64,000 nucleotides of DNA from Okamejei kenojei (taxonomy: Eukaryota): NCBI GenBank assembly GCA_035221665.1, contig CM069148.1, positions 45,880,001 to 45,944,000 on the forward strand, written 5' to 3'. Below are positions 21,701-60,807 of the stretch, one piece after another. Under the pieces are notes generated by a model. That model worked only from the letters and a program-made list of their open reading frames with translations, had not been told where the DNA came from and did not search any database. The translations under genes were made by a program, and so were the position numbers. Every line of letters starts with the position of its first letter. Positions within the stretch are counted from its first letter, which is position 1.

Positions 21701-24700
21701 TGATTAGGGAACATAGTAATGGCAGGTACACCAACTGCAGTCAAGTGTTTTTCCTTGAGGAATATAGAGGGTATAGGAGAAACTGAGAACAAATGGAGGT
21801 GAGTAAATATTGTTAGTCTGAAGGAGGGTCTCGACCCGAAACGTCGCCTAGTTCCTTCGCTCCATAGATGCTGCCTCAACCGCTGAGTTTCTCCAGCATT
21901 CTTGTCTACCTTTGATTTTCCAGCATCTGCAGTTCCTTCTTAAACAAAATATTATTAGCAGGTAAGATATGCTGACTATCATTCTATATCTATATTAGAA
22001 GCAAGAGAGATAGACACAAAATGATGGAGGGACAAACAGCAACTTTGGATAGAAGGAATGGATTACGTTTCCGGTAGAGACCCTCCTTCAGACTGAGGGG
22101 AGAGGGAGACACAGAGATATGGAAGGGTAATGTGTGAAAATGAGATCAAAGGGGATGAAGCTCAAGGAAAATGTAGAATAGATCATTGACAGCTATGGAA
22201 AGGTAAATAGGATGGTGAAGAAAGCATATGTTATCGGTAACTTCTGTAGGTCAAGACGTGGAATATAAGAATCGGGACCTTATGGTGCACTCTAGAAAAC
22301 ACTGGTTACACCATAAGGAGTTATATGTGCAGTTTTGATACCCACACTATAGAAAGGATGTGGTTGCGCTGGAGAGAATGCAGAGGGGATTCACCAGGAG
22401 ACCTGGTGATCTGAATGAGGTATATACGATGAACAGAAGCAAAGATTGAGCATATTGTCCAAATCTTTTTCCCATGGCAGGGATATTGAAAATAAGAGGG
22501 CACATGTTTAAGATGAAATGAAGGAGTTTTGAAAGAGACGTGAGGGTTAGGGATAGCCAGACGAGGTGCTGGATGTAGCAGCCATTTATCTTAACTCAGT
22601 ATATTATAACTATAACCAGTTACCTTTAAATTTTATCTGCCTGTAATTATGTGGGTGGGATATATATGAGGCGTGTTTGTGGCTTGGATTCTCGCACAGA
22701 CTCCCTAGTAGTTAGATTAGTTTGACGAACGAGGCAACGGTCTTAGCTTCCGACCATGCACGAGCATGATCACGATTGAATTGAAATGTACTTATACAAG
22801 AAGAAGGGGTGGAAGATTGCAACCTTCACGTGGTCCGCCCTGTTTCGACTAATGCAATCAACTCGACTTGCAGAAGCAGAAGATCAAATAGAACAAGTTG
22901 TCCAACAACTTTAGGCTGTGCATGCCACACGGCAGAAGAAGAAGATACAAGAAGAAGTTTGGATGAATATCTTACTGTTTTTACTACTACAATAAAGAAA
23001 CTATTAATCAAGAGACTGTGTTTGGAAGATTTATCTTTCAGCGGCATTGAGTGTCTCGTGGAGAGCTCGTGAGTGCGTATCAATTATCTCCTGATCCCCT
23101 GTCTTCAATCATAGTGACTAAAGGAAATAATCCTTGAGACGATATAAAAATCTGTCATCATTTAGGTAGACTTAAGTAGGCAAGGCACAGAAGGATACAG
23201 TCCTAATGCTTCAAATGGGAATTGTGTACAGGGGCAAATACATGTTGTGGGCATATTGTGCCGAAGGGGCCATTTCTGTGCTGCACAAACGATGGTGTTG
23301 CTCATCGAGCAAATAAGGCTCTTATTACATCCTCAGTGATCTTTTCACATAGAACTGAATTTCTAGAATAAATCCGAGGTAGATGGTCTATAAACCATAT
23401 ATATTAAAAATACCACAAATAGAAAGACGAAATAAAAACAGAGAAATAAACGAGAAAGCTAACTTACAGTCCGACAGACATACAGATAGTACATTCTTTA
23501 CAAAAGGCCCTGTCCCACAATGCGAGTTCACCCAAGAGCTCTCCCAAGTTAAAAAAAAAATCTAACTCGTGGTAAGTATGTGGAATGTACGTAGCGGGTA
23601 TGTCGGAGCTCGTGGATGTCTCATAGTGGCTCGTAATGCTAACGGCAGGTACTCCGGAAAAGCGGAAACTCGTGAAGTTTTTTCCACAGTGTGAAAAATT
23701 ACCAAGAGTAAAAAAATACTCGTGATGTGTTTGATTTTTTTTTTTAACTCGGGAGAGTTAAAGTAGTAGTAAAAACTCTTGGGTAAACTCGCATCGTGGG
23801 ACAGGCCATAAAGAGGAGCACGAGCCACACCCTGCCCACTCCCTCTTCTCCCTCTCCCATCGGGCAAAAGGTATAGAAGTGAAAATGCACACCTTCAGAT
23901 TCAGGGACAGTTTCTTTCCAGCTGCTATCAGGCAACTGAAACATTCCACCACAACCAGCGAACAGTCCTGAACGACGATCCTGCTCATCCGTGACCCTCT
24001 GACTATCTTTGATTGGACTTTACTGGCTTTACCTTGCACTAAACGTTATTCCCTGATCATGTATCTGTACACTGTGAATGGTTCGATTGTAATCATGTTT
24101 TGTGTTTCCGCAAACTGGTTAGGACGCAACAAAACTTTTCACTGTACCTCGGTACATGTGATAATATACTGAACTGAAGAAGAAAAATTGGATATTTTAA
24201 CAAGCCACAGGTATTAGTGTGAGTGAACAAAGCAAGTGCACAGCAGCAAATGATCAGTACTGTAATTGCTTTGCTGGAAACACTAGGTTATGTACTGGTG
24301 TCAGTTTGGTGTCTGCGTCTCTATACCAGTTGATCAAGGGGAGATGGGGCCAAAGTCAGGGGTCTGGGCTAACTTGGGCTAGTAGCACATCAACAAGGAA
24401 GCCTGGGAACATCCTCACACATGGGAAGATTAGGAAGTGGCGCATTGATAAGAGGCCTGCTCTGGAACATGTGTGGAAGACCTGTGAAAGACATATACTG
24501 TACGTTTGTACCAACATTCGTATGGTGATTTGTATAAATTCACATGCTGAGCTTATACAGAGGTCTAACAAACACATTCATGGACTGTGAAACAAGCCAT
24601 GTAAAGGACTGGACTATCACTTCAATTATACAATTTAATGATTGATTTATACAGTCACATGTTATGAACAAGTGATACACTGACCTGCAGATATTACTTT

Positions 24701-27700
24701 CCCGTTGACTTTGCAGACGCAGGGTGTTGAAGCTGTGAAACCGGGAGTTGTTGCTTGCACTGTTGTGGTTTCAGCTGTACTGTGCTCGGTGATTGGAGAG
24801 GTGTTTTCACACTTTCTTGTATATGTCAAAATTTTGCAGCCCTCAGTGCACAGTGTGTAATTGCAGAGGCCTGATTTATCTTCGGAAATCACAGTGGATT
24901 GACCTGCATGTCAAAGCAACAGAAATTATGCTTCAACAATGTGTTGGATGGATATAAAAATGAACAAAAGTCATATTTCTAGCTGGGAATACACTAGGAG
25001 TCACCACTCACTCCACAGAAACGACATCACCACTACATTTCCACTGATATTATTAATGCCAAAATGTTTCTTCAGCCATACACTAGTTAGCTACTGTTAA
25101 ATCCTGTGGATTTTGGTGCTGTTTGCTGTCAAAATATATATAGTATACAAAGATATGTACAAATATGTATTGGACAATTCCTTTGCAAAGTTTGTAGACT
25201 GCTGTTGAACTGTGTTTTCTTCATCAGGCAAGCTCTATGCAACGGGAAGAGGACATCACAAACTAGAAAGAGCAGTGGGTCATTGACAGCATTGGATCCG
25301 CATCTCCACAGAACATGAGATGAAGGCCCAAGGAACTGCAGATTTTGGTTTACAAAAAAAGACTAAAAGTGTTGGAGTAACTCAACGAGTCAGGCAGAAT
25401 CTCGGGAGAACATGGATACGTGACATTTCAGATCAGGACTCTTATTCAGATTGATTGTGGTGGGTTTTTGAGATACAGATGTGTAGGCAAAGGTCTGATG
25501 AGTTGCAAATCGTGAGGCTAGAGGAAGAAATGTCAGTGGAAGTGGTAGAGATAAGTGCAAGTCTAGATGAGGCACGAAGGAGGGGGGGGATGAAAATGAA
25601 AGTGGAAGTGGCGTGAGAAAGGGGAGGGTGTCTCCAGGTCAGGCAAAGTGGTGCAGTTAAATCAGACATTTATAACTTTACTCTGTGTACTGTGGATTGT
25701 AAAGTTCTGAAGTACACAGGAAGATGTGAGCTCCAGTGTATATTGATGCCGCTGAAGTACAGATGGTCGAAAGTTTTAAGTTCTTAAGATTAAATATCGG
25801 CAACAATTTGTCATGGACTAACCACATTGACGCAATAGCCAAGAAAGAACATCAACTTCCTTAGATGGCTTAGGATGTTTGACATATCTCCAACAACCCT
25901 CACCAACTTCCACAGATGCGCCACAGAAAAATAAAATTGGCAATAGCTTCATCCAAAACCACAATAGATTGCAGAGAATTGTGGATGTGGGCCAAACCAT
26001 CATACAAACAAACTACCTTTCTATGGACTCCACCTACACCAAGCTGACTTGGCAAGGCCAAGCTTAATCAAAGAGCAGTCTCACCCCAGCCACTTCCTCA
26101 TCTCCCATCAGACAGATGCGCAGAAGTTTGAAAACACATACCTGCAGTTTCAGGGAATTTCTTCTAAGGAGTTATCAGGGAATTGAACCGTTCTCTCACC
26201 AGCTAGATTGTGGTCCCGACCTGCCATCTACCTTATTAGACATCTTTGAACTATCTTTAATCAGACTTTATCTTGCACTAAATGATATACCCTTTATCCT
26301 AAACTGTACACTGTGGAGGTTTGATGATAATCACGTCTAGTCTTTTTGCTGACCTTGGTACATGTGACAATAATAATCTAAATCTAAACTGAAAGGAATA
26401 TAACCAACAAATATCTTGATCTATGTTTTGGAATGAGATTCGTGTATTTCATATGTGCAATAAGGTTGAAAGAGTGTTAATATCATTTTACAGAGTAAGT
26501 GTCAAGAATCAGGAGGTTCTGAAGAACATTGAGCAAACGGAAGGATGTGTATCATATTGTAGAATGCCAGGCAAGGCAGCCACTGGTTGGCAGTATGTGT
26601 AAAGGAAATAGTGGAGAGGCTGGAAAATGCTTGAACAGTGTTTTCCGTTTGAGTTAATGTGATCAAAGTGCTTAATATCTCCAATGTGACCACAGGCTTC
26701 TTTCTTGCAACCACTGAGCTACAAGATATTTTTGGTTCCTGTGGTCCTTAAACCCAACAAAATGTGAGGAGATGACTATTTCCCCAGAAAGTACGTGATC
26801 GGACATGTACAATTAACCTTGGGGATGGGTGGACAGATGTTTTCCCAAGCAAAACCAAGAGTCTGTAATTATTTGCCATTCATTGCCAATGAATGCTGTT
26901 GCCATTCTCAGAGAGGGATCATGGATTACATCGCAATCTGATGTTGCTGCTGAGAACAACTTGAAACAGTTCTATCCTGGTGCTCAACAGTTGTAAGCAA
27001 GAAGCCTCTGGTCACGGTTGACGAATTAAAAACTTAAAAAAAAAAAAACTACTTAAAGAAAAAATCTAAGATAGAAATAAATTTCTACAAAGCCTTTGAT
27101 CATAGAAAGCTTTGTTAAATTGAGTCAAAGAGGGGTCCCTAAATATATTGTGAGAATACTGGCTTACTGGTATGCCCACCAGACTATGCAAATAAAATGG
27201 CGCAATAGGGTCTCAGCCCCATTTGGGATTAGCAATGGTGTTAGACAAGGGGGGATTTTGGCCCCGGTCCGTTTTAATCTTTATATTGATGATCTGTCCA
27301 AGCAATTGAAAGCCTGTAACACTGGGTGCGTGATTGGTAATATTTTAGTGAACCATATTATGTATGCAGATGATCTTGTGGTCTTTAGTCCATCTAGTGC
27401 TGGTCTCCTGTAGCTCCTTACTACATGTTATGTGTATGGTGTGGAACATGATATTAAATGTAATTAAAAGTGCTGTTATGATCTGTAGATCCAAAGAGGA
27501 TAAATGTCTAAAATGTCCTGATTTTAAATTGTCTGACATTAATCTTAGTGTCTGTAATAAGGTAAAATATCATGGGCATTTTATTACAGAACAAATGACA
27601 GATGATGAGGATATTTAAAGGCAAGTCATATGCTGTATGTACAGGCTAATATTCCCTTTTATAAGTTTGGTGCGTTTACAGTTGTAGTGAAGTCTATTTC

Positions 27701-30700
27701 AGAGCATATCGTACACCACTCTATACTGCACACCTGTGGTAAAACTACAGAAAAACAAGTTTACACAGATTTAAAATAGCGAATAATTATGCCATTAGAA
27801 TACTACTAAAGAAACCTACATGGTGTAGTGCAAGTGAAATGTTTGTGGCTGCAGGAGTCTGTACTTTACAAGCTATCCTAATAAATCATATGTATCAATT
27901 TATTGGCAGGATTAATGGCTCTGAAAAAGAAGTTATCTTGGTCTAATCAAACATAAGGTTTAGCACAACACGCTACCAATCACAGCTGTGGACATTGGTA
28001 TTGTTGTCTTGTTGTAGGACATGATCTTTCTTTTTATTCTGGATTTTAAATCATGTATTGTATTTTTGTGTATAATCTTTGATGCTCATAAGAAATTTAC
28101 TAAGCTTTTATATGTATTATGGTGTTTTTATATGCAATGTATTCTATGTAATGTCACCTTTTATTGGACCTTGAGTCTGAAACAAAATTTTAATTAGAAA
28201 ATTAAAACAATTGATTAATTAATTAATTGACACACTTACCAGGGAGCATTATTCGCCCGTCATTCTCACAGGTACATGCTGTAGTTCCTCTTGACGTTGG
28301 TGTTACTGTCACTGTTGTAGCTGATGTTGTGGTTTCTGCTGGTGTGGTTGTAGTTTCACATCTTCCGTGTACTTCAGAATTTCACAATCCTCAGCACACA
28401 GAGTAAAGTTACAGAGGCCTGATTTATCTGCAGAAGTCACAGTTGCCTGACCTGGAGGCAAAATAATGAAAATCAGGGTGAGTGAACCTGAATGTAATGA
28501 AACCATGAAATATCTTTATCTCCGCTAATGAAGCTTGTTCATATCCATCACTTGAGAAATAAGTCTTAAATTTGTGAATATTATTTAGCAGACTGTGTGT
28601 CAAGAATCAGGATGTTCTGAACCTCATCCGGTAAACACCAGGGTCTGGTTGTGAAGCTTAACATTTTGGCAAAGCAGCTTGCTGCTGACAGGCTGTGTAA
28701 AAGGAAATTGTGGAGTGAATGTAAAGGCACAATACAGGAATCAGCAGACAATAGCGCGGCAATTGCAGAACGGATACGCAGTTGCATGATTCATTATTGA
28801 GAGGGGATGGTGATATCTCCAGAATGTGCGAGATCAGGCGTGTACAATTAACTTTGGAGATGGGTGGACATACGTTTTCCCAAGGAAAAGCAAGTGTGTG
28901 TAATTATTTGCCACGCATTGCCAATCAATGCTGTTGCAATTTTCTGCATTGGGATTATGGATGACATCACAACCTGATGTTGCTGCTGAGGTCCACTTGA
29001 AACAATTTTATCCTGGAGCTCAACAGTTGCAAGCAACAAGCCTCTGATCACGTTGAAACAATTAAGAACTCAAACAAATTAATTCACTAGAAAATAAAGG
29101 TAGTATAGAAATACATTAGCACTATGTATTATCATGTTGAAATAAAGATTGGAGCAACACATTCACAATCTGAGGCACTTCTTGCATTCATCTTAAGATA
29201 GCAAGAGTCATTAAACAAAATATGTTTCTTTGCAATGTGCATGGAAGAGGTCTATGATAATTGACACACTTACCAGGTACCATTTTTCGCCCGTCATTCT
29301 CACAGGTACATGTGGTAGTTCCTACCCAAGAGACAGCTGTAAAGCTCTTTCTTTGAAATGTGAACAGAAGAGCACTTTGATTACTGACACACTTACCTGG
29401 TGACATTATATGTCCGTCAACATCACATGAACAGATTGTAGTTCCTTTTGACGTTGGTGTTACTGTCACTGTTGTAGCTGATGTTGTGGTTTCTGCTGGT
29501 GTGGTTGTACTTTCACATCTTCCTGTGTACTTCAGAACTTCACAATCCTCAGTACACAGAGTAAAGTTACAGAGGCCTGATTTGCCTGCAGACGTCACAG
29601 TTGCCTGACCTGGTGGCGAAGAAAAGAAAATCAGGTTGTGTACACTTGAAGGTGATGTAACTGATGACTATCTTTATGTTTGAGCCCACCTCCCCCATCC
29701 CGTCCTCACCACTTTCTACAGGGGCACCATAGAGAGTATTTTGACCAGTTGCATCTCTGTCTGGTTTGGGGACTGTTAAAACCTCCAACTGGAAGACCGT
29801 GCAGAGAGTGGTGAGGACAGCTGAAAAAATCGTCGAGACTTCTCTCCCCTCAATCGGGGATATTGCGACCAAACGTAGCGTGTCTAAGGCCAGCAGTATT
29901 ATAAAGGACCCCACACATCTCCATCACGGACCGTTCACTCTGCTGCCCTCGGGCAAAAGATATCGTAGCATAAGGAGCAGAACATCAAGGTTCTGCAACA
30001 GCTTCTTCCCACGAGCCATCAGACTCCTGAATGCCATGTAATGGGCTGCCACCATTGTCTATGTATCCTTTTATCCTTCTATCCATTTTATCCATTTTAT
30101 CCTTCTGTTTATTATCGTGTTGCACGGGGAGCCAGCAATGATGGATTTTAGAAATACATCGATGCATGTATCGATGTATTTCTAAATGACAATAACGTTT
30201 GTTTGACTTTGACTTGATATTGTAGCTGAATTATTGCGGTTGTGCAGAATTGTTGAGGAGGCTTTATTATAATTTCAAAGAATTTGTATAAATTCTCAAC
30301 AAATTCTCAACCACATCTGAGCAAAGACCAGTGTGTGATTTCATATCATAGCTTGCGGCTGGCAGGCCTTGTAAAAGACAATAGGAGAGAGAATGTAAAT
30401 CAGCGGAAGAGTGAGCGACAATTGCAGTAAGGTTGCTCTGTTGCTTAGTTCATTTTTGGGCAGAAATACCTTTTTTCAGGGGAGGTATGATCTGGCCCAT
30501 AACACAATACATGGGGTCGGGTGGACAACAACATTTCCAGTATAAAAGTGTAGGTCCACACTCGTGAGTAAACCTCTATGATCAGTGTTGCTGCCAATCG
30601 CAATGTTGGGGTGCTGAATTATATCGTAACAAGATGTTGCATTTTAGGATCATTTGCACCAAATATATCGTGTAGCTCAATGGTTCCATTGGAGCAACGA

Positions 30701-48700: not shown

Positions 48701-51700
48701 ATTTTGCCGACTTCATCACGGTTCAGGATGTTCTGAACCAAATCTGAGCAAACAGCATTGTCTGCGTTTTTGGAGCTGGTTGGCAGCGGGTCATCCAAGA
48801 TTCTTTTGAGATTTGGAACAACACCAACAGCCACCATGTAGACATACACACACTAGGAGCAGGAACTGCCTCTCAAATCCAATCCACCAGTCGTAGTGTT
48901 ATACAGCATTTTAACTCATCCAAGCTAACCAAATTACCTAATAGAATTTCCCATTTACTTGTGATTGGCCCATAATCATTTGAACCTTAGTACACAGAGT
49001 AAAGTTACACAGCCATGATTTACCGGCAGACATCACCATTGCCTGACGTGGAGGCAAAGTAAAGAATATCAAGGTTTGCGAACCTGCATGTTATATAATC
49101 ATAAAATATCTTTATCTCTGCTGATGATGCTGGTTCATGCGTTTCACTTAGTAAGTAAGTTTGTAATATGAGAATATGATTTTGCAGAATGCATCAAAGA
49201 TCAGGACGTTCAGAACCACATCTGTGTAAGTACCAGGTTCTAGTTGTGAAGCATAACATTTTGGCAAAGCTGGTTGCTGCTGACAGGCAGTGTCAAAGGG
49301 AATTCTAGAGTGAATGTGAAAGCACAATACAGGAATCAGCAGAAGATTACTTGACAACTGCATCACGGATACTCATTTGCATGATTCATTTTTGAGAAGG
49401 GATGGCAATGTCTCCTGAAGGTGCGTGATCATGCGTGTACAATTAAACTTGGAAATGGGTGAACATACGTTTTCCCAATGAAAAGCAAGAGTGTGATTAT
49501 TTGCCATCTGTTGCCAATCAATGCTGCTGCCATTTTCAGCTTTGGGATTATGGATTTATTTGTCTTTTCAATGTGAATGGAAGAGCTATGTGATAATTGA
49601 CACACTTACCAGGTAACATTATTCGCCCGTCATTCTCACAGGTACATGTGGTAGTTCCTCTTGACGTTGGTGTTACTGTCACTGTTGTAGCTGATGTTGT
49701 AGTTTCTGCTGGTGTGGTTGTACTTTCACATTTTCCTGAGTACTTCATAACTTTACAATCTTCAGTACACAGAATGAAGTTACAGAGGCCTGATTTACCT
49801 GTAGACGTCACGGTTGCCTGACCTGGAAGCAAAGAAAAGAAAATCAGGTTGTAATTTCAAAGTGTTTGCATCAAGAATCAAGAAATGATGAACATCACCT
49901 CGTTTGATCAAACACAGTGCGTGACTTCATATCGTAGATTGTGGCTGGCAGGCCTTGTAAAAGGGAATTGTGGGGAGAATATAATATAGAAATAAGCAGA
50001 AGAGTGAGTGGCAATTGCAGTAAGGTTGCTCAGTTGCGAAGTTCATTTTTGGGCAGAAATAACTTTTTTCACGCGAGGCATGATCTGGCCCCATAACTGA
50101 AACCATGGGCGGACCACAAAATTTCCAGTATAAAAGTGTAGGTCCACATTGTGAGCAAACCTCTCTGATCAATGCTGCCGTCAAGCAGAATGTAGGGATG
50201 TTGAACTTTATCGTAACATGATGTTGCATTTAAGGAGCATTTGAATGAATTACATCCTGTAGCTCTATGGTTTCAAAGAAGAAGTCTCCGGTGATTTTAA
50301 ACTATTAAGAGCTTCAACCACATTAACTCAAATGGAAAAAACTAAGAAAGCAAAAAGATTCTATAATTTATGTTGACATGTTGTGAACTGTGCATCAACT
50401 TCATAATTGGATGCATTTCTTGCTATCATCTGCACTTAGCAAGAGACAGATGTAGGTTCCATAGATGCTGCCTCACCCGCTGAGTTACACGAGCATGTTT
50501 GACTACCCAAGAGACAGCTGTAAAGCTCTTTCTTTGAAATGTGAACAGAAGAGCACTTTGATTACTGACACACTTACCTGGTGACATTATATGTCCGTCA
50601 ACATCACATGAACAGATTGTAGTTCCTTTTGACGTTGGTGTTACTGTCACTGTTGTAGCTGATGTTGTGGTTTCTGCTGGTGTGGTTGTACTTTCACATC
50701 TTCCTGTGTACTTCAGAACTTCACAATCCTCAGTACACAGAGTAAAGTTACAGAGGCCTGATTTACCTGCAGAAGTCACAGTTGCCTGACCTGGAGGCAA
50801 AGAAAAAAATATCAGGTTGTGTACACGTAAAGGTGATGTAACTGATGACTATCTTTATGTATGATGTTGAAGCTGGTTCATGTCTTTCACTTGGGAAATA
50901 AGTTTGAAATATGTGAATATTATTTTGCCGACTTCATCAAGGTTCAGGATGTTCTGAACCAAATCTGAGCAAACAGCATTGTCTGCGTTTTTGGAGCTGG
51001 TTGGCAGCGGGTCTTCCAAGATTCCTTTTGAGATTTGGAACAACACCAACAGCCACCATGTAGACATACACACACTAGGACCAGGAACTGCCTCTCAAAT
51101 CCAATCCACCAGTCGTAGTGTTATACAGCATTTAACTCATCCAAGCTAACCAAATTACCTAATAGAATTTCCCATTTGCTTGTGATTGGCCCATAATCAT
51201 TTGAACCTTAGTACACGAAGTTACACAGCCCTGATTTACCGGCAGACATCACCATTGCCTGACGTGGAGGCAAAGTAAAGAAAATCAAGGGTTTGCGAAC
51301 CTGCATGTTATATAATCATAAAATATCTTTATCTCTGCTGATGACGCTGGTTCATGCTTTTCACTTAGTAAGTAAGTTTGTAATATGAGAATATGATTTT
51401 GCAGAATGCATCAAAGATCAGGACGTTCTGAACCACATCTGTGTAAGTACCAGGTTCTAGTTGTGAAGCATAACATTTTGGCAAAGCTGGTTGCTGCTGA
51501 CAGGCAGTGTCAAAGGGAATTCTAGAGTGAATGTGAAAGCACAATACAGGAATGAGCAGAAGATTACTTGACAACTGCATCACGGATACTCATTTGCATG
51601 ATTCATTTTTGCGAAGGGATGGCAATGTCTCCTGAAGGTGCGTGATCAGGCGTGTACAATTAACCTTGGAAATGGGTGAACATACGTTTTCCCAATGAAA

Positions 51701-54700
51701 AGCAAGGGTGTGATTATTTGCCATCCATTGCCAATCAATGCTGCTGCCATTTTCAGCTTTGGGATTATGGATTTCTTTGTCTTTTCAATGTGAATGGAAG
51801 AGCTCTGTGATAATTGACACACTTACCAGGTAACATTATTCGCCCGTCATTCTCACAGGTACATGTGGTAGTTCCTCTTGACGTTGGTGTTACTGTCACT
51901 GTTGTAGCTGATGTTGTAGTTTCTGTTGGTGTGGTTGTACTTTCACATCTTCCTGTGTACTTCATAACTTTACAATCTTCAGTACACAGAATGAAGTTAC
52001 AGAGGCCTGATTTACCTGTAGACGTCACGGTTGCCTGACCTGGAAGCAAAGAAAAGAAAATCAGGTTGTAATTTCAAAGTGTTTGCATCAAGAATCAAGA
52101 AATGATGTACCTCGTTTGATCAAACACAGTGCGTGACTTCATATCGTAGATTGTGGCTGGCAGGCCTTGTAAAAGGGAATTGTGGGGAGAATATAATATA
52201 GAAATAAGCAGAAGAGTGAGTGGCAATTGCAGTAAGGTTGTTCCGTTGCGAAGTTCATTTTTGGGCAGAAATAACTTTTTTCACGGGAGGCATGATCTGG
52301 CCCATAACAGAAACCATGGGCGGACCACAAAATTTCCAGTATAAAAGTGTAGGTCCACATTGTGAGCAAACCTCTCTGATCAATGCTGCTGCCAAGCAGA
52401 ATGTAGGGATGTTGAACTTTATCGTAACATGATGTTGCATTTAAGGAGCATTTGAATGAATTACATCCTGTAGCTCTATGGTTTCAAAGAAGAAGTCTCC
52501 GGTGATTTTAAACTATTAAGAGCTTCAACCACATTAACTCAAATGGAAAAAACTAAGAAAGCAGAAAGATTCTATAATTTATGTTGACATGTTTAGAACT
52601 GTGCATCAACTTCATAATTGGATGCATTTCTTGCTATCATCTGCAGTTAGCAAGAAACAGATGAAGGTTCCATAGATGCTGCCTCACCCGCTGAGTTTCA
52701 CCAGCATTTTTGACTACCCAAGAGACAGCTGTAAAGCTCTTTCTTTGAAATGTGAACAGAAGAGCACTTTGATTACTGACTCACTTACCTGGTGACATTA
52801 TATGTCCGTCAACATCACATGAACAGATTGTAGTTCCTTTTGACGTTGGTGTTACTGTCACTGTTGTAGCTGATGTTGTGGTTTCTGCTGTTGTGGTTGT
52901 ACTTTCACATCTTCCTGTGTACTTCAGAACTTCACAATCCTCAGTACACAGAGTAAAGTTACAGAGGCCTGATTTACCTGCAGAAGTCACAGTTGCCTGA
53001 CCTGGAGGCAAAGAAAAAAAATATCAGGTTGTGTACATGTGAATGTAACTGATGACTATCTTTATGTATGATGTTGAAGCTGGTTCATGTCTTTCACTTG
53101 GGAAATGTTTGAAATATGTGAATATTATTTTGCCGACTTCATCAAGGTTCAGGATGTTCTGAACCAAATCTGAGCAAACAGCATTGTCTGCGTTTTTGGA
53201 GCTGGTTGGCAGCGGGTCATCCAAGATTATTTTGAGATTTGGAACAACACCAACAGCCACCATGTAGACATACACACACTAGGAGCAGGAACTGCCTCTC
53301 AAATCCAATCCACCAGTCGTAGTGTTATACAGCATTTTAACTCATCCAAGCTAACCAAATTACCTAATAGAATTTCCCATTTACTTGTGTTTGGCCCATA
53401 ATCATTTTAACCTTAGTACACAGAGTAAAGTTACACAGCCCTGATTTACCGGCAGACATCACCATTGCCTGACGTGGAGGCAAAGTAAAGAATATCAAGG
53501 TTTGCGAACCTGCATGTTATATAATCATAAAATATCTTTATCTATGCTGATGATGCTGGTTCATGCGTTTCACTTAGTAAGTAAGTTTGTAATATGAGAA
53601 TATGATTTTGCAGAATGCATCAAAGATCAGGACGTTCTGAACCACATCTGTGTAAGTACCAGGTTCTAGTTGTGAAGCATAACATTTTGGCAAAGCTGGT
53701 TGCTGCTGACAGGCAGTGTCAAAGGGAATTCTAGAGTGAATGTGAAAGCACAATACAGGAATCAGCAGAAGATTACTTGACAACTGCATCACGGATACTC
53801 ATTTGCATGATTCATTTTTGAGAAGGGATGGCAATGTCTCCTGAAGGTGCGTGATCATGCGTGTACAATTAAACTTGGAAATGGGTGAACATACGTTTTC
53901 CCAATGAAAAGCAAGAGTGTGATTATTTGCCATCCGTTGCCAATCAATGCTGCTGCCATTTTCAGTTTGGGATTATGGATTTCTTTGTCTTTTCAATGTG
54001 AATGGAAGAGCTATGTGATAATTGACACACTTACCAGGTAACATTATTCGCCCGTCATTCTCACAGGTACATGTGGTAGTTCCTCTTGACGTTGGTGTTA
54101 CTGTCACTGTTGTAGCTGATGTTGTAGTTTCTGCTGGTGTGGTTGTACTTTCACATCTTCCTGTGTACTTCATAACTTTACAATCTTCAGTACACAGAAT
54201 GAAGTTACAGAGGCCTGATTTACCTGTAGACGTCACAGTTGCCTGACCTGGAAGCAAAGAAAAGAAAATCAGGTTGTAATTTCAAAGTGTTTGCATCAAG
54301 AATCAAGAAATGATGTACCTCGTTTGATCAAACACAGTGCGTGACTTCATATCGTAGATTGTGGCTGGCAGGCCTTGTAAAAGGGAATTGTGGGGAGAAT
54401 ATAATATAGAAATAAGCAGAAGAGTGAGTGGCAATTGCGGTAAGGTTGCTCAGTTGCGAAGTTCATTTTTGGGCAGAAATAACTTTTTTCACGCGAGGCA
54501 TGATCTGGCCCACAACTGAAACCATGGGCGGACCACAAAATTTCCAGTATAAAAGTGTAGGTCCACATTGTGAGCAAACCTCTCTGATCAATGCTGCCGT
54601 CAAGCAGAATGTAGGGATGTTGAACTTTATCGTAACATGATGTTGCATTTAAGGAGCATTTGAATGAATTACATCCTGTAGCTCTATGGTTGCAAGGAAG

Positions 54701-57700
54701 AAGTATCCGGTGATTTTAAACTATTAAGAGCTTCAACCACATTAACTCAAATGGAAAAAACTAAGAAAGCATAAAGATTCTATAATTTATGTTGACATGT
54801 TCAGAACTGTGCATCAACTTCATAATTGGATGCATTTCTTGCTATCATCTGCACTTAGCAAGAGACAGATGTAGGTTCCATAGATGCTGCCTCACCCGCT
54901 GAGTTACACGAGCATGTTTGACTACCCAAGAGACAGCTGTAAAGCTCTTTCTTTGAAATGTGAACAGAAGACACACTTACCTGGTGACATTATATGTCCG
55001 TCAACATCACATGAACAGATTGTAGTTCCTTTTGATGTTGGTGTTACTGTCACTGTTGTAGCTGGTGTTGTGGTTTCTGCTGGTGTGGTTGTACTTTCAC
55101 ATCTTCCTGTGTACTTCAGAACTTCACAATCCTCAGTACACAGAGTAAAGTTACAGAGGCCTGATTTACCTGCAGAAGTCACAGTTGCCTGACCTGGAGG
55201 CAAAGAAAAAAATATTAGGTTGTGTACATGTGAAGTAACTGATGACTATCTTTATGTATGATGTTGAAGCTGGTTCATGTCTTTCACTTGGGAAATGTTT
55301 GAAATATGTGAATATTATTTTGCTGACTGCATCAAGGATCAGGATGTTCTGAACCAAATCTGAGCAAACAGCATTGTCTGCGTTTTTGGAGCTTGTTGGC
55401 AGCGGTTCTTCCAAGATCTTTTTGAGATTTGGAACAACACCAACAGCCACCATGTAGACATACGCACACTAGGAGCAGGAACTGCCTCTCAAATCCAATC
55501 CACCAGTCGTAGTGTTATACAGCATTTTAACTCATCCAAGCTAACCAAATTACCTAATAGAATTTCCCATTTACTTGTGTTTGGCCCATAATCATTTTAA
55601 CCTTAGTACACAGAGTAAAGTTACACAGCCCTGATTTACCGGCAGACATCACCATTGCCTGACGTGGAGGCAAAGTAAAGAATATCAAGGTTTGCGAACC
55701 TGCATGTTATATAATCATAAAATATCTTTATCTCTGCTGATGATGCTGGTTCATGCGTTTCACTTAGTAAGTAAGTAAGTTTGTAATATGAGAATATTAT
55801 TTTGCAGAATGCATCAAAGATCAGGACGTTCTGAACCACATCTGTGCAAGCACCAGGTTCTAGTTGTGAAGCATAACATTTTGGCAAAGCTGGTTGCTGC
55901 TGACAGGCAGTGTCAAAGGGAATTCTAGAGTGAATGTGAAAGCACAATACAGGAATCAGCAGAAGATTACTTGACAACTGCATCACGGATACTCATTTGC
56001 ATGATTCATTTTTGCGAAGGGATGGCAATGTCTCCTGAAGGTGCGTGATCATGCGTGTACAATTAAACTTGGAAATGGGTGAACATACGTTTTCCCAATG
56101 AAAAGCAAGAGTGTGATTATTTGCCATCCGTTGCCAATCAATGCTGCTGCCATTTTCAGCTTTGGGATTATGGATTTCTTTGTCTTTTCAATGTGAATGG
56201 AAGAGCTATGTGATAATTGACACACTTACCAGGTAACATTATTCGCCCGTCATTCTCACAGGTACATGTGGTAGTTCCTCTTGACGTTGGTGTTACTGTC
56301 ACTGTTGTAGCTGATGTTGTAGTTTCTGCTGGTGTGGTTGTACTTTCACATTTTCCTGAGTACTTTATAACTTTACAATCTTCAGTACACAGAATGAAGT
56401 TACAGAGGCCTGATTTACCTGTAGACGTCACAGTTGCCTGACCTGGAAGCAAAGAAAAGAAAATCAGGTTGTAATTTCAAAGTGTTTGCATCAAGAATCA
56501 AGAAATGATGAACATCATTTGATCAAACACAGTGCGTGACTTCATATCGTAGCTTGTGGCTGGCAGGCCTTGTAAAAGGGAATTGCGGGGAGAATATAAT
56601 ATATAAATAAGCAGAAGAGTGAGCGGCAATTGCAGTAAGGTTGCTCAGTTGCGTAGTTCATTTTTGGGCAGAAATAACTTTTTTCACGGGAAAAATAACT
56701 TTTTTCATGATCTGGCCCATAACAGAAACCATGGGCGGACCACAAAATTTCCAGTATAAAAGTGAAGGTCGACATTGTGAGCAAACCTCTCTGATCAATG
56801 CTGCTGCCAAGCAGAATGTAGGGATGTTGAACTTTATCGTAACATGATGTTGCATTTAAGGAGCATTTGAATGAATTACATCCTGTAGCTCTATGGTTGC
56901 AAGGAAGAAGTATCCGGTGATTTTAAACTATTAAGAGCTTCAACCACATTAACTCAAATGGAAAAAACTAAGAAAGCAAAAAGATTCTATAATTTATGTT
57001 GACATGTTTAGAACTGTGCATCAACTTCATAATTGGATGCATTTCTTGCTATCATCTGCACTTAGCAAGAGACAGATGAAGGTTCCATAGATGCTGCCTC
57101 ACCCGCTGAGTTTACACCGAGCATGTTTGACTACCCAAGAGACAGCTGTAAAGCTCTTTCTTTGAAATGTGAAGAGCAGAACTGACACACTTACCTGGTG
57201 ACATTATATGTCCGTCAACATCACATGAACAGATTGTAGTTCCTTTTGATGTTGGTGTTACTGTCACTGTTGTAGCTGGTGTTGTGGTTTCTGCTGGTGT
57301 GGTTGTACTTTCACATCTTCCTGTGTACTTCAGAACTTCACAATCCTCAGTACACAGAGTAAAGTTACAGAGGCCTGATTTACCTGCAGAAGTCACAGTT
57401 GCCTGACCTGGAGGCAAAGAAAAAAATATTAGGTTGTGTACATGTGAAGTAACTGATGACTATCTTTATGTATGATGTTGAAGCTGGTTCATGTCTTTCA
57501 CTTGGGAAATAAGTTTGAAATATGTGAATATTATTTTGCTGACTGCATCAAGGATCAGGATGTTCTGAACCAAATCTGAGCAAACAGCATTGTCTGCGTT
57601 TTTGGAGCTTGTTGGCAGCGGTTCTTCCAAGATCTTTTTGAGATTTGGAACAACACCAACAGCCACCATGTAGACATACACACACTAGGAGCAGGAACTG

Positions 57701-59617
57701 CCTCTCAAATCCAATCCACCAGTCGTAGTGTTATACAGCATTTTAACTCATCCAAGCTAACCAAATTACCTAATAGAATTTCCCATTTTCTTGTGTTTGG
57801 CCCATAATCATTTGAACCTTAGTACACAGAATAAAGTTACACAGCCCTGATTTACCGGCAGACATCACCATTGCCTGATGTGGAGGCAAAGTAAAGAAAA
57901 TCAGGGTTTGCGAACCTGCATGTTATATAATCATAAAATATCTTAATCTCTGCTGATGACGCTGGTTCATGCGTTTCACTTAGTAAGTAAGTTTGTAATA
58001 TGAGAATATTATTTTGCAGAATGCATCAAAGATCAGGACGTTCTGAACCACATCTGTGCAAGCACCAGGTTCTAGTTGTGAAGCATAACATTTTGGCAAA
58101 GCTGGTTGCTGCTGACAGGCAGTGTCAAAGGGAATTCTAGAGTGAATGTGAAAGCACAATACAGGAATCAGCAGAAGATTACTTGACAACTGCATCACGG
58201 ATACTCATTTGCATGATTCATTTTTGCGAGGAGATGGCAATGTCTCCTGAAGGTGCGTGATCAGGCGTGTACAATTAACCTTGGAAATGGGTGAACATAC
58301 GTTTTCCCAATGAAAAGCAAGGGTGTGATTGTTTGCCATCCGTTGCCAATCAATGCTGCTGCCATTTTCAGCTTTGGGATTATGGATTTATTTGTCTTTT
58401 CAATGTGAATGGAAGAGCTATGTGATAATTGACACACTTACCAGGTAACATTATTCGCCCGTCATTCTCACAGGTACATGTAGTAGTTCCTCTTGACGTT
58501 GGTGTTACTGTCACTGTTGTAGCTGATGTTGTAGTTTCTGCTGGTGTGGTTGTACTTTCACATTTTCCTGAGTACTTTATAACTTTACAATCTTCAGTAC
58601 ACAGAATGAAGTTACAGAGGCCTGATTTATCTGTAGACGTCACAGTTGCCTGACCTGGAAGCAAAGAAAAGAAAATCAGGTTGTAATTTCAAAGTGTTTG
58701 CATCAAGAATCAAGAAATGATGAACATCATTTGATCAAACACAGTGCGTGACTTCATATCGTAGCTTGTGGCTGGCAGGCCTTGTAAAAGGGAATTGTGG
58801 GGAGAATATAATATAGAAATAAGCAGAAGAGTGAGTGGCAATTGCAGTAAGGTTGTTCAGTTGCGTAGTTCATTTTTGGGCAGAAATAACTTTTTTCACG
58901 GGAGGCATGATCTGGCCCATAACAGAAACCATGGGCGGACCACAACATTTCCAGTATGAAAGTGTAGGTCCACATTGTGAGCAAACCTCTCTGATCAATG
59001 CTGCTGTCACACACAATGTAGGGGTGTTGAACATTATCATAACATGATGTTGCATTTAAGGAGCATTTGAATTAATTACATCCTGTAGCTCTATGGTTGC
59101 AAGGAAGAAGTCTCCGGTGATTTTAAACTATTAAGAACTTCAACCACATTAACTCAAATGGAAAAAAACTAAGAAAGCAAAAAGATTCTATAATTTATGT
59201 TGACATGTTTAGAACTGTGCATCAACTTCATAATTGGATGCATTTCTTGCTATCATCTGCACTTGGCAAGAGACAGATGTAGGTTCCATAGATGCTGCCT
59301 CACCCGCTGTGTTTCACCAGCATTTTTGACTACCCAAGAGACAGCTGTAAAGCTCTTTCTTTGAAATGTGAACAGAAGAGCACTTTGATTACTGACACAC
59401 TTACCTGGTGACATTATATGTCCGTCAACATCACATGAACAGATTGTAGTTCCTTTTGACGTTGGTGTTACTGTCACTGTTGTAGCTGTTGTTGTGGTTT
59501 CTGCTGGTGTGGTTGTACTTTCACATCTTCCTGTGTACTTCAGAACTTCACAATCCTCAGTACACAGAGTAAAGTTACAGAGGCCTGATTTACCTGCAGA
59601 AGTCACAGTTGCCTGAC
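538..59617 (-). CDS. Gel-forming mucin (MUC5AC/MUC5B/MUC2-like), 5'-partial multi-exon gene, about 2900 aa visible
   Basis: 47 intact exons traced by hand with GT/AG boundaries and compatible phases. Domain order: repeated Cys/PTS modules, VWD (CMGWGGSHYITFDG...EGQCGTCNNNKTDDC), C8, TIL, VWC-like modules, CTCK, then TAG at 538-540. Confidence 0.93.
1210..1496. mobile_element. hAT-superfamily MITE
   Basis: TIRs cagggccggcctta.../...taaggctggccctg and an exact 8-bp TSD gaaatagg at 1202-1209 and 1497-1504. Confidence 0.85.
1880..2525 (+). mobile_element. CR1-type LINE, decayed 3' fragment
   Basis: Typical CR1 ORF2 C-terminal remnants (gtacagagggatcttggggtcc; ggagagggtgcagaggaggttt; SYEKRLDRRGLFSLECRKFRENLIEMYKIMR); boundaries approximate. 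Confidence 0.75.
2547..2664 (-). CDS. Mucin exon, N-terminal half of cystine knot
   Basis: 118 nt, cag/gtacgt; IPKTCSIKKIVTHINHKGCRSQHEVPMTSCGGRCMTSS; phase matches both neighbours. Confidence 0.9.
3202..3241 (-). CDS. Mucin exon (end of VWC module)
   Basis: 40 nt, cag/gtaagt; GTIHLDKDGCCQTC. Confidence 0.88.
3333..3461 (-). CDS. Mucin exon (VWC module)
   Basis: 129 nt, cag/gtaagt; PGEKTSEGKNNCTTYECEKIGRHFIPNIYNQWCPRFDHDNCEP. Confidence 0.9.
4705..4990 (+). mobile_element. tRNA-derived SINE
   Basis: A/B-box-like head (gcagtagag...ggttcgatc), ggtttcctcccacactccaaagatgtac core, (tctaaag)n tail. Confidence 0.75.
5425..5645 (-). mobile_element. tRNA-derived SINE fragment
   Basis: Reverse complement of the same family (tttgggatgtgggaggaaactggagcacccagagaaaaccc). 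Confidence 0.7.
5782..6165 (-). mobile_element. Penelope-like terminal repeat fragment
   Basis: gaaggaactgcagatgct...gacatttcgggtcgagacccttcttcag...gggttgttagctgcccgagcaaaatat; related copies at ~935-1200, 11640-12075, 21055-21320, 21815-21945, 22010-22200, 25330-25620. Confidence 0.55.
6203..6301 (-). CDS. Mucin exon (VWC module)
   Basis: 99 nt, cag/gtatgc; GYEYKKLEGQCCGNCTQVSCIIDLPNRPPIILK. Confidence 0.9.
6383..6505 (-). CDS. Mucin exon (VWC module)
   Basis: 123 nt, cag/gtaacc; PGMTVPQNTCKDCKCTEDVDPLTRLHAIACTPIKCDTQCSQ. Confidence 0.9.
7280..7580 (-). mobile_element. tRNA-derived SINE
   Basis: Reverse-strand copy of the SINE family (ctttggagtgtggaggaaaccagagcacccggagaaaact). Confidence 0.7.
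7983..8023 (-). CDS. Mucin exon
   Basis: 41 nt, cag/gtaagg; PKSVCVFNDTEYK. Confidence 0.87.
8157..8261 (-). CDS. Mucin exon (VWC/B-like module)
   Basis: 105 nt, cag/gtaagt; CNISHCPTVKFDCKPGYTPVLHMKDNKCCLTYTC. Confidence 0.9.
8560..9270 (+). mobile_element. Penelope-like element fragment (decayed GIY-YIG endonuclease)
   Basis: QGPQQSFQMRQRFTCTSSNLIYCI followed out of frame by LYIGETK, then KLEEQHIIFRLGSL-like sequence. Confidence 0.7.
9851..10028 (-). CDS. Mucin exon (VWC-like module)
   Basis: 178 nt, cag/gtaagt; VGETWQSNCQDCSCSKATLSIICKPHKCP...DDLCCTETTC. Confidence 0.9.
10130..10161 (-). CDS. Mucin 32-nt exon
   Basis: tag/gtaggt; CIGPDGKPKQ, matching the mucin C-x-GPDG-x-PK motif. Confidence 0.88.
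10593..10702 (-). CDS. Mucin exon (TIL, second half)
   Basis: 110 nt, tag/gtaagt; SDDKNTPSGKGVLDDGCFCPDGKILFEPGDICTDSC. Confidence 0.9.
10816..10885 (-). CDS. Mucin exon (TIL, first half)
   Basis: 70 nt, cag/gtttgt; YHCPAYMEYKPCASKEQPTCGS. Confidence 0.88.
12091..12272 (-). CDS. Mucin exon (C8 domain)
   Basis: 182 nt, tag/gtaagt; IFSKCNDKVPPGPFYEACVNDACHV...CVDWRNHTDGIC. Confidence 0.92.
13037..13283 (-). CDS. Mucin exon (end of VWD4 plus short PTS insert)
   Basis: 247 nt, cag/gtaagt; TCNNNKTDDCTLPD...HCDAGTTTPGP...PTTPCAASNICKIILG. Confidence 0.92.
13950..14133 (-). CDS. Mucin exon (VWD4)
   Basis: 184 nt, cag/gtatgt; ALVNDEAIIQPYSHDGIRI...LPNKIFEKNVEGQC. Confidence 0.92.
14791..14963. 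other. Assembly gap (173 N)
   Basis: Run of N inside an intron. The flanking VWD4 exons join in phase, so no exon need be missing. Confidence 0.99.
14964..15431. mobile_element. Probable non-autonomous Helitron/Helentron-like element end
   Basis: Short hairpin ggacccaatggatcc followed by acttggtCTAGt and T-rich flank; internal 54-bp inverted repeat. Confidence 0.4.
16311..16555 (-). CDS. Mucin exon (start of VWD4)
   Basis: 245 nt, cag/gtaagt; SCMGWGGSHYITFDGTEYTFKGKCTYIVVKQI... Confidence 0.93.
18171..18345 (-). CDS. Mucin exon (pre-D4 Cys-rich segment)
   Basis: 175 nt, tag/gtgagt; MNETWKLDNCTKATCKGND...DSNCCYQQECG. Confidence 0.92.
19660..19868 (+). mobile_element. tRNA-derived SINE (internally deleted)
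   Basis: ggtggtgcagcggtaga...ccctggttcgaacc head and (aaacta)n tail. Confidence 0.75.
20051..20235 (-). CDS. Mucin exon (last six-Cys module, phase 1-0)
   Basis: 185 nt, cag/gtgagt; EEIYFTSDKAGWCYIGLCTSKCDIVKHTIPC...GGCPDLHPPRA. Confidence 0.92.
20630..20905 (+). mobile_element. tRNA-derived SINE
   Basis: gtagagttgctgccttacagcgc...ccctggttcgatccc...cttcctcccacactccaaagacgtac...gggcctgtttcc. Confidence 0.75.
22205..22560 (+). mobile_element. CR1-type LINE fragment
   Basis: cactatagaaaggatgtggttgcgctggagagaatgcagaggggattcaccagg, a typical CR1 ORF2 remnant. Confidence 0.65.
22807..22944 (+). mobile_element. Short retroposon with (GAA)n tail and 13-bp TSD
   Basis: atacaagaagaag duplicated at 22794-22806 and 22945-22957; element ends ggcagaagaagaag. 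Confidence 0.65.
23506..23807. mobile_element. MITE with long TIRs (PIF/Harbinger-like termini)
   Basis: ggccctgtcccacaatgcgagttcacccaagag... and ...ctcttgggtaaactcgcatcgtgggacaggcc are inverted repeats, with internal A-run/T-run symmetry. Confidence 0.75.
23815..24178 (+). mobile_element. Rex1/Babar-type LINE 3' end
   Basis: cccctctcccatcgggcaaaaggtatagaagt...ttcagggacagtttctttccagctgctatcaggcaactgaa; (actga)n tail. Confidence 0.7.
24685..24903 (-). CDS. Mucin diverged repeat exon (219 nt, phase 1-1)
   Basis: cag/gtcagt; QSTVISEDKSGLCNYTLCTEGCKILTYTRKC...TPCVCKVNGKVISA. Confidence 0.88.
25735..26392 (+). mobile_element. Rex1/Babar-type LINE fragment
   Basis: FKFL...NNLSWTNHIDAIAKK and RLQRIVDVGQTII remnants; (aatcta)n tail. 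Confidence 0.65.
27095..28228 (+). mobile_element. Non-LTR retrotransposon RT fragment (RTE-X-like, clade uncertain), 5'-truncated and decayed
   Basis: NGVRQGGILAPVRFNLYIDDL and NHIMYADDLVVFSPS RT motifs with stops and frameshifts; AT-rich (attaa)n tail next to the donor of the 28240 exon. Confidence 0.8.
28240..28451 (-). pseudogene. Frameshifted repeat exon (212 nt), pseudo-exon or consensus error
   Basis: Splice sites intact, but there is a 1-nt deletion near 28366 (tcttccgtgt versus tcttcctgtgt) and a premature stop at 28309-28311. Confidence 0.75.
29397..29609 (-). CDS. Mucin repeat exon type A
   Basis: 213 nt, cag/gtaagt, open frame, 6 Cys. Confidence 0.82.
29682..30217 (+). mobile_element. 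Rex1/Babar-type LINE 3' fragment
   Basis: LTTFYRGTIESILTSCISVWFG...QRVVRTAEKI...LPSGKRYRSIRSRTSRFCNSFFPRAIRLLN; 3' stem-loop at 30147-30186; (gactt)n tail. Confidence 0.85.
30894..31106 (-). CDS. Mucin repeat exon type A
   Basis: 213 nt, AG/GT, open frame. Confidence 0.85.
32119..32331 (-). CDS. Mucin repeat exon type B
   Basis: 213 nt, AG/GT, open frame. Confidence 0.85.
33080..33292 (-). CDS. Mucin repeat exon type A
   Basis: 213 nt, AG/GT, open frame. Confidence 0.85.
34333..34545 (-). CDS. Mucin repeat exon type B
   Basis: 213 nt, AG/GT, open frame. Confidence 0.85.
35203..35415 (-). CDS. Mucin repeat exon type A
   Basis: 213 nt, AG/GT, open frame. Confidence 0.85.
36449..36661 (-). 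CDS. Mucin repeat exon type B
   Basis: 213 nt, AG/GT, open frame. Confidence 0.85.
37411..37623 (-). CDS. Mucin repeat exon type A
   Basis: 213 nt, AG/GT, open frame. Confidence 0.85.
38661..38873 (-). CDS. Mucin repeat exon type B
   Basis: 213 nt, AG/GT, open frame. Confidence 0.85.
39623..39835 (-). CDS. Mucin repeat exon type A
   Basis: 213 nt, AG/GT, open frame. Confidence 0.85.
40863..41075 (-). CDS. Mucin repeat exon type B
   Basis: 213 nt, AG/GT, open frame. Confidence 0.85.
41762..41974 (-). CDS. Mucin repeat exon type A
   Basis: 213 nt, AG/GT, open frame. Confidence 0.85.
43012..43224 (-). CDS. Mucin repeat exon type B
   Basis: 213 nt, AG/GT, open frame. Confidence 0.85.
43971..44183 (-). 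CDS. Mucin repeat exon type A
   Basis: 213 nt, AG/GT, open frame. Confidence 0.85.
45211..45423 (-). CDS. Mucin repeat exon type B
   Basis: 213 nt, AG/GT, open frame. Confidence 0.85.
46158..46370 (-). CDS. Mucin repeat exon type A
   Basis: 213 nt, AG/GT, open frame. Confidence 0.85.
47403..47615 (-). CDS. Mucin repeat exon type B
   Basis: 213 nt, AG/GT, open frame. Confidence 0.85.
48365..48577 (-). CDS. Mucin repeat exon type A
   Basis: 213 nt, AG/GT, open frame. Confidence 0.85.
49610..49822 (-). CDS. Mucin repeat exon type B
   Basis: 213 nt, AG/GT, open frame. Confidence 0.85.
50578..50790 (-). CDS. Mucin repeat exon type A
   Basis: 213 nt, AG/GT, open frame. Confidence 0.85.
51827..52039 (-). 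CDS. Mucin repeat exon type B
   Basis: 213 nt, AG/GT, open frame. Confidence 0.85.
52789..53001 (-). CDS. Mucin repeat exon type A
   Basis: 213 nt, AG/GT, open frame. Confidence 0.85.
54035..54247 (-). CDS. Mucin repeat exon type B
   Basis: 213 nt, AG/GT, open frame. Confidence 0.85.
54981..55193 (-). CDS. Mucin repeat exon type A
   Basis: 213 nt, AG/GT, open frame. Confidence 0.85.
56230..56442 (-). CDS. Mucin repeat exon type B
   Basis: 213 nt, AG/GT, open frame. Confidence 0.85.
57195..57407 (-). CDS. Mucin repeat exon type A
   Basis: 213 nt, AG/GT, open frame. Confidence 0.85.
58442..58654 (-). CDS. Mucin repeat exon type B
   Basis: 213 nt, AG/GT, open frame (STDKSG variant). Confidence 0.85.
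59405..59617 (-). CDS. Mucin repeat exon type A
   Basis: 213 nt, tag/gtaagt, open frame. Confidence 0.85.
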
Positions 59618-60807
59618 CTAGAGGCAAAGAATAAAATATCAGGTTGTGTACACGTAAAGGTGATGTAACTGATGACTATCTTTTTGTATGATGTTGAAGC
59701 TGGTTCATTTCTTTCACTTGGGCAAAATAAGTTTGAAATGTGTGAATATTAAATTTGCCGACTCCTTCAAGGATCAGGATGTTCTGAACCAAATCTGAGC
59801 AAACAGCATTGTCTGCGTTTTTGGAGCAGTTTGGCAGCGGTTCTTCTAGCTCTGTCATTAATGCAAACAAACACAACATTTTTCAACTGGGATGAATGGA
59901 TACAAAAAATGGGAATCAGTTATCCTTGATGGTGTTTGACATTGGTAGCTTTTAGACATCGATGCTTTCAGGGAACTGCTGGACTCATCATTTCCAGACA
60001 TTTCCCAGATATAGCGATGGCTCCTTAAGGACTCATGTGTATCTTCACATCAGTTCTCAAAATTCTCTTTCCAGATTCTTTAAGTTTCACAAGATTCTTT
60101 TGAGATTTGGAACAACCCCAACAGCCACCATGTAGACATACACACACTAGGTGCAGGAACTGCCTCTCAAATTCAATCCACCAGTCGTAGTGTTATACAG
60201 CATTGAAACTCATCCAAGCTAACCAAATTACCTAATAGAATTTCATATTTACTTGTGTTTGGCCCATAATCATTTGAACCTTAGTACACAAAGTTACACA
60301 GCCCTGATTTACCGGCAGACATCACCATTGCCTGACGTGGAGGCAAAGTAAAGAAAATGAGGGTTTGCGAACCTGCATGTTATATAATCATAAAATATCT
60401 TTATCTCTGCTGATGACGCTGGTTCATGCGTTTCACTTAGTAAGTAAGTTTGTAATATGAGAATATTATTTTGCAGAATGCATCAAAGATCAGGACGTTC
60501 TGAACCACATCTGTGCAAGCAACATGGTCTAGTTGTGAAGCATAACATTTTGGCAAAGCTGGTTGCTGCTGACAGGCAGTGTCAAAGGGAATTCTACAGT
60601 GAATGTGAAAGCACAATACAGGAATCAGCAGAAGATTACTTGACAACTGCATCACGGATGCTCATTTGCATGATTCATTTTTGCGAAGGGCTGGAAATAT
60701 CTCCTGAAGGTGCGTGATCAGGCGTGTACAATTAACCTTGGAAATGGGTAAACATACGTTTTCCCAATGAAAAGCAAGGGTGTGAATATTTGCCATCCGT
60801 TGCCAAT

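Follow-up and report, generated by a model that had tools for sequence, protein, structure and literature searches.

The window (the whole 64,000-nucleotide stretch of Okamejei kenojei DNA analysed here) carries on its minus strand the 3' part of a Muc5-type gel-forming skate mucin gene, consisting of an array of repeated exons that encode six-cysteine modules, followed by an intact VWCN-VWD4-C8-TIL-VWC-CK tail. Taken together with the orthologous gene models, this gene probably encodes a Muc5-type mucin in which a long PTS is combined with an array of fibronectin-type-I/E-type (Fn1/E) modules, which would have arisen from a split module and would serve as a spacer. The window gene was read from DNA alone, while its orthologues are automatic gene models. 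Its own 5' part lies outside the window, and the N-terminus and long PTS described below come from the orthologue models.

Array exons were located by a splice-site scan of the minus strand, which returned 29 exons with starts between 59617 and 28451, 28 of them 213 nt long. All 28 are flanked by AG..GTAAGT, are in phase 1-1 and lack stop codons. The components of the array are:

29397..59617, minus strand: array of 28 intact 213-nt exons, phase 1-1
59617, 58654, 57407, 56442, 55193, 54247, 53001, 52039, 50790, 49822, minus strand: intact exon starts, first part
48577, 47615, 46370, 45423, 44183, 43224, 41974, 41075, 39835, 38873, minus strand: intact exon starts, middle part
37623, 36661, 35415, 34545, 33292, 32331, 31106, 29609, minus strand: intact exon starts, last part
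28240..28451, minus strand: 212-nt exon copy, splice sites intact, one base deleted
24685..24903, minus strand: 219-nt divergent last array exon (AG..GTCAGT), whose 3' end encodes the first part of the terminal module

An earlier sequence-only reading of this DNA had reported 28 intact 213-nt exons plus one 219-nt exon, and an array of about 2060 aa; the scan gives the same counts and these exons sum to 2061 aa (28x71+73). Each 213-nt exon opens with the second part of a module, continues through a 27-aa Thr/Ser/Pro linker and closes with the first part of the module that follows; the six cysteines fall at identical positions in all 28 intact exons. In-silico splicing, with exon 20235-20051 included, yields 29 full 44-aa modules with the spacing C-x-C-x22-C-x4-C-x3-C-x8-C (no adjacent Cys), 15 N-glycosylation sequons and no Trp in the array. 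Mucin2_WxxW (PF13330) was found neither in any of the four module-bearing exons searched nor in models P0001 and P0003, so that the earlier description of a six-Cys, Trp-free, non-CysD module holds. The linkers are Thr-rich and short, as had been described (69% Pro/Thr/Ser, 62% Thr+Ser), and 27 aa long in 27 of 28 cases instead of about 26 aa. As a control, neither of the two minus-strand AG-213-GTRAG frames outside the array is open with six Cys. Intact exons alternate between an A type (n=15) and a B type (n=13). In B-type exons (e.g. 58442-58654, minus strand), a GTGAG 183 nt from the exon start could serve as an internal donor, which would keep the phase and lose the context of two Cys.

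The 212-nt exon has 6 substitutions of its own, where intact exons have 0-2, and translation would stop before VWD4 (and CK) if it were spliced in. It may be a skipped or dead exon, a null allele or an assembly error. Several of its residues are common to the Leucoraja erinacea model and absent from the homogenised copies, and its sequence suggests an older edge copy of the array.

Downstream of the array, 18 exons form one open frame, all with AG acceptors and the 17 internal ones with GT donors, up to a stop codon at 540-538 (minus strand):

20051..20235, minus strand: first of the 18 3' exons, with the second part of the terminal module (has Trp), a short PTS and the start of VWCN
18171..18345, minus strand: VWCN (D4N) exon, E=1.1e-9 to MUC2 VWCN (7QCL)
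12091..16555, minus strand: VWD4 and C8 exons (16555-16311, 14133-13950, 13283-13037 and 12272-12091)
538..10885, minus strand: TIL, VWC and cystine-knot exons, including a 32-nt exon (10161-10130)

The VWCN, VWD4 and C8 tail in this frame bears out the earlier assignment to a gel-forming mucin. In Pfam searches with single exons, VWD (E=2.6e-15) and C8 (E=7e-16) are above threshold and VWC is weak; the TIL and VWC labels come from position and from blastp to the orthologue models. The last exon alone reaches Cys_knot only weakly, at E=5.5e-4 (20.6 bits, under the cut-off of 24), the domain spanning two exons and its position fitting. A 173-N assembly gap (14791-14963) lies in the intron between the first two VWD4 exons, and the frame is continuous without it.

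The gene looks, by sequence, Muc5-type rather than Muc2-type, because an orthologue N-terminus is nearest to MUC5AC/B (1709 bits for MUC5AC, 1581 for MUC5B with a shorter construct and 1420 for MUC2, scores that depend on construct length), the extra VWCN cysteine is missing and there is no GDPH. At the site of the extra cysteine of MUC2 VWCN, which we take to be the inter-chain C4379 from the available part of PMC10082768, the VWCN exon has Asp, and the VWD4/C8 region has GGSH where MUC2 has GDPH. Most orthologue models are named 'mucin-2-like' by NCBI.

The nearest protein to the window gene is that of Leucoraja erinacea (93%), and the array or fragments of it occur in named models from nine elasmobranch species (Leucoraja, Rhinoraja, Narcine, Pristis, Heptranchias, two Chiloscyllium, Rhincodon and Scyliorhinus); 12 of the 22 representatives from one search (unnamed, or Clytia, Cymbomonas and JGI entries) and two metaclust matches from another were left out. 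Over the main alignments, identity of the window tail is 61-66% with the models of Pristis, Scyliorhinus, C. punctatum and Rhincodon, and 33-37% with frog and Pristiophorus mucins. The layout of the orthologue models is D1-D2-D'-D3, a long Cys-free PTS, the module array, one terminal module, a short PTS and the C-terminal tail. Models P0002, P0008, P0026, P0047 and P0048 are visibly mis-joined. In P0002 of Narcine bancroftii, for example, a DHHC palmitoyltransferase fragment is fused to degenerate array modules, probably a mis-prediction across interleaved repeats.

For the PTS we counted the models with D3 and array separated by PTS, namely Pristis, Rhinoraja, C. plagiosum and C. punctatum; the Rhincodon model, although it has D3 and an array, was left out as it seems to include spliced-in pieces of another mucin. 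A Cys-free PTS runs straight up to the first module, over 643 aa in Pristis, 785 and 736 aa in the two Chiloscyllium and 464 aa in Rhinoraja (69-72% Pro/Thr/Ser, 60-62% Thr+Ser). No CysD was found in these four models, either as WxxW or as a Pfam match, and WxxW is absent from all six long models examined. As a PTS of 464-785 aa directly precedes the array in all four, the array was most likely added to the long PTS, with only CysD missing.

The bead itself is predicted, from profile comparison and fold modelling, to be a 44-aa all-beta Fn1/E-type module related to the end of D3 and to the module preceding VWCN; it is not new as a domain type. An AlphaFold2 model from a 10-sequence alignment (pLDDT 86) has five strands (6-8, 11-13, 18-23, 28-34 and 40-46) in a 2+3 pattern. 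Its best structural neighbour is the tPA finger (Z 6.1, rmsd 3.1, 48 aligned); others are fibronectin and factor XII Fn1 domains, NELL2, FCGBP and residues 1183-1238 of MUC2 D3 (Z 3.7), and the top 8 VIA rows are Fn1 domains. Foldseek gave no match to the model at E<=0.001, and the best structural Z is under 8. An Atlas structure search returned leads to mucin VWD, chordin/VWC and plasminogen-activator clusters, and an Atlas feature search no usable match. The sequence-only reading had proposed a Pfam scan and a structure prediction for the module: the former gave sub-threshold matches only, none of them fn1, and the latter the Fn1/E-like fold. Two Pfam assignments, Crisp (P0004) and DUF7210 (Xenopus models), were rejected as summed multi-repeat scores with no single stretch passing. 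In a two-module model (pTM 0.27), the beads are folded and the Thr-rich linkers disordered (pLDDT<50), in line with the folded beads and spacers proposed earlier and consistent with no fixed orientation between beads.

Among 177,635 PDB sequences, a nine-module profile (array and terminal modules, no D3-end member) matched only MUC5AC, at the end of D3, with E=1.1e-5, ungapped over all 44 positions. An earlier MUC5AC match at E=9e-15 was set aside as circular, its alignment containing the D3-end module. When a profile was built from five array modules, no PDB mucin was matched, and elasmobranch array-only profiles do not reach the D3-end module, the link running via terminal and frog modules. 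Single-exon PDB searches found nothing meaningful, as the exon splits the module. Pairwise identities are 38% for array-terminal, 40% for terminal-D3-end and 23% for array-D3-end comparisons, array modules being 30-45% identical to elasmobranch terminal modules. The D3-end E module of MUC2/MUC5AC resembles the bead in its 44-residue length, its Cys register and the structural alignment of MUC2 D3 and Fn1, but it has Gly at the fifth Cys position, is single-copy and is 18-25% identical to array modules. The terminal module occupies the position of the MUC11p15-type domain of MUC5B, and is assigned to that type by position.

In a tree of modules (44 columns, 14 of 20 forks open, bootstrap unsettled), elasmobranch array modules form one clade (98/95); they are 61-80% identical between species, and a single origin before the split of sharks and rays is likely. 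Xenopus models with no published description (XP_017948876, F6RMB8 and XP_041445890) likewise carry a tandem module array before VWCN-VWD4, which has the same Cys spacing, is linked by short PT stretches and leads into a terminal module (hhalign probability 86%, E=4.7e-6). However, Xenopus array modules are 46-47 aa long, basic and only 23-37% identical to those of elasmobranchs. As they cluster with the terminal module of Xenopus (92/88, not starred), the tree, which is short and poorly resolved, suggests an amplification separate from the elasmobranch one. Read-through ends suggest that the Xenopus models share the mid-module intron, and also point, tentatively, to another intron within the linker. 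Some of the Xenopus models (P0013, P0014, P0039-P0042, P0045) are labelled kielin/chordin-like or uncharacterised. In a mucin model of another frog, Eleutherodactylus coqui, a long PTS is followed by one module, a short PTS and VWCN, which is likely the ancestral state; this module scores 10 bits against a shuffled maximum of 11 and was assigned by Cys spacing and position.

A plausible starting point would be a single pre-VWCN module interrupted by a phase-1 intron. The Thr-rich sequences that flank the split module could have undergone unequal crossing-over, which would have produced a symmetric exon (second part, linker, first part). Such an exon could be amplified, skipped or lost without breaking the frame, and would have been amplified once in the shark-ray ancestor and then homogenised within species.

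Further exon copies and an inserted element lie around the intact exons:

31577..60347, minus strand: 14 dead, truncated third exon copies, one per unit, with acceptor AG changed to AC in 14/14
29265..29323, minus strand: orphan 3' fragment of a B-type exon with donor site
25634..25729, plus strand: inverted partial exon copy
60807..64000, plus strand: decayed reverse-transcriptase-like element, inserted in an array intron and bounding the array in the window

A and B exons sit in a genomic repeat of about 2.2 kb, each unit of which has a dead third exon copy, so that the unit would once have held three exons. Read-through sequence in the Rhinoraja model P0008 matches the dead third copy, which places the latter before the split of these skates. 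Across 13 units, divergence between units is 0.8% for A exons, 1.7% for B exons and 2.7-2.9% for introns; with introns differing so little, the similarity among copies reflects recent homogenisation. Indels are absent from the 13 A and 13 B exon copies, while introns show 3.2-3.7 events per kb, and pN/pS between A and B exons is 0.48 (13 units). The inverted partial copy and the orphan 3' fragment mark a decaying 3' edge of the array. The frameshifted 212-nt exon, the A/B alternation and the dead third copies had all been left out of the sequence-only reading, according to which the array was open to the window edge; it stops instead at the reverse-transcriptase-like element, and the next upstream exon therefore lies beyond the window. 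This GC-rich element starts at about 60807, 92 nt into an otherwise normal array intron. An Atlas lead points to reverse transcriptase (score 0.91, with RVT_1 in 33% of the members of the cluster), and Pfam found nothing in three fragments of the element (about 60807-64000). Its motifs would fit the DIRS type.

The six Cys of each bead would form three internal disulfides, with no free thiol, and the linkers would be O-glycosylated, their Thr+Ser content being like that of the orthologue PTS. Most beads would also carry an N-glycan: of 67 array modules from seven named models, 64 have a sequon after their third Cys, and in the window only the A-type exon does. Assuming 2 nm for a module and 0.2 nm for a glycosylated residue (PMC7599080), 29 units are calculated to span about 215 nm, versus about 410 nm for pure PTS. 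The array could thus act as a jointed, protease-tolerant spacer, per residue about half as long as pure PTS, and polymerisation would still proceed through CK dimers and D3 links.

Other readings of the array have to be weighed against this one. According to the sequence-only reading, the array stands instead of a long PTS, and the backbone would consist solely of beads and short spacers. The window indeed contains no long PTS, the Narcine P0001 and Heptranchias P0004 models are pure array, and a partial X. tropicalis model (P0045) goes from D3 almost straight into modules. However, the pure-array models are fragments without VWD, and in all four elasmobranch models with D3 and array, including a skate, the long Cys-free PTS described above lies between the two, which makes replacement highly improbable. 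It is also very unlikely that the array is largely non-functional, as a recent tandem amplification, an assembly artefact or part of a gene that ends prematurely at the frameshifted exon. Identity between units is 97-99% with introns counted, so that copy number could be misassembled, and the 212-nt frameshift, the 14 dead copies, the orphan and inverted fragments and the retroelement insertion all look like decay. Yet there are 21 distinct DNA sequences among 30 exons, the Cys are invariant and intact exons free of indels while dead copies decay, 18 intact exons follow downstream, and the array is present in other elasmobranchs.

The beads might also do more than hold a distance. About 30 Fn1-like beads would make a putative multivalent binding rod, which self-associates in place of CysD or, in an alternative form, binds a partner or a microbial adhesin by edge-strand addition. 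Such a role would agree with the absence of CysD from the models, with the conservation across species of surface residues as well as Cys, and with the peptide-binding Fn1 modules among the structural neighbours. A CysD-like role has been proposed by its authors for the Cys-rich repeats of the Xenopus mucin MucXS (PMC5789918), and according to the available part of PMC4948705 CysD is limited to 11 of 26 X. tropicalis mucins, Xenopus being where arrays of the module also occur. On the other hand, the conserved N-glycan site and the dense flanking O-glycans would be expected to shield the bead, and the frog mucin model P0049 has neither WxxW nor an array, so that loss of CysD needs no array. We thus consider the binding rod, both forms taken together, unlikely. 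A broader version, with two independent amplifications of the module in CysD-less mucins, one in the shark-ray ancestor and one in Xenopus, and with the module serving there as a putative multivalent non-covalent cross-linker or ligand rod, also appears unlikely to us; if true, it would give an orphan domain a function and provide a second way to tune mucus mesh size. We retain the spacer as the simplest and probable role, the binding rod being its main rival.

The general picture of mucin polymerisation is left unchanged by the array. The array presents, in many natural copies, a small domain whose function we found nowhere described for mammalian mucins, and its 71-aa unit is small enough for expression and testing. 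It also shows how a split domain can turn into a self-amplifying symmetric exon. With no Pfam match to flag the array, mucins of this kind either pass for plain VWD-PTS proteins or stay uncharacterised fragments.

Full-text search, with most subscription papers beyond its scope, turned up no account of this module in a tandem array. Nothing on it appears in the available parts of PMC4200417, PMC11933400, PMC11765562 and PMC7177656, and no search term matched in PMC11912381; the main text of PMC4948705, as far as available, makes no mention of such an array, and its supplements could bear on the point. Shark skin proteomics detected mucin-2-like and mucin-5B-like proteins, whose architecture is not given in the available part of the paper (PMC10707392). 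Two candidates were rejected. The skate protein with 27 CysD belongs to a different family, as judged from part of PMC11765562. The hagfish (Myxine glutinosa) model P0011, 'mucin-5AC-like' and matched at E=3e-20, has another Cys repeat and gives nothing with the module profiles. It strings together about 19 tandem Cys modules through short Thr/Ser linkers and is another beads-on-a-string mucin-like protein, its bead presumably resembling chitin-binding type 2 repeats.

The closest known design is MucXS of Xenopus tropicalis (formerly Otogl), a gel-forming, multi-exonic skin mucin with 39 Cys-rich repeats alternating with 34 short PTS, from which peptides were recovered almost only in the Cys-rich parts (PMC5789918). 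As in the skate gene, many non-CysD Cys modules alternate with short PTS over many exons. However, MucXS has a CCxxxxC consensus while the bead lacks CC, and orthologues of the window gene keep a long PTS (both compared by eye); moreover, MucXS is described with three N-terminal VWD and CK and without VWD4, which is present here. The novelty suggested by the sequence-only reading is thus partial: the beads-on-a-string design is already published and the module is of known type, while an array of the Fn1/E-type module across sharks and rays, and its apparently separate counterpart in Xenopus mucin models, seem not to be in print as far as our search extends. Chicken MUC2, from the available part of its description, shares a central region spread over many repeated exons, but its multi-exon PTS is built of 69-aa pure-PTS cassettes with four CysD interspersed (PMC3549977), whereas the skate exons encode Cys modules without CysD. 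Finally, the 3' region of human MUC5B, as far as its available description goes, comprises 18 exons of 32-781 bp, with the MUC11p15-type domain first (PMC6780288). The skate gene likewise has 18 exons, the smallest also of 32 nt, and a Cys domain ahead of VWCN, but the pre-VWCN module, listed once in MUC5B, is repeated about 30-fold, and CysD is absent from the orthologue models.
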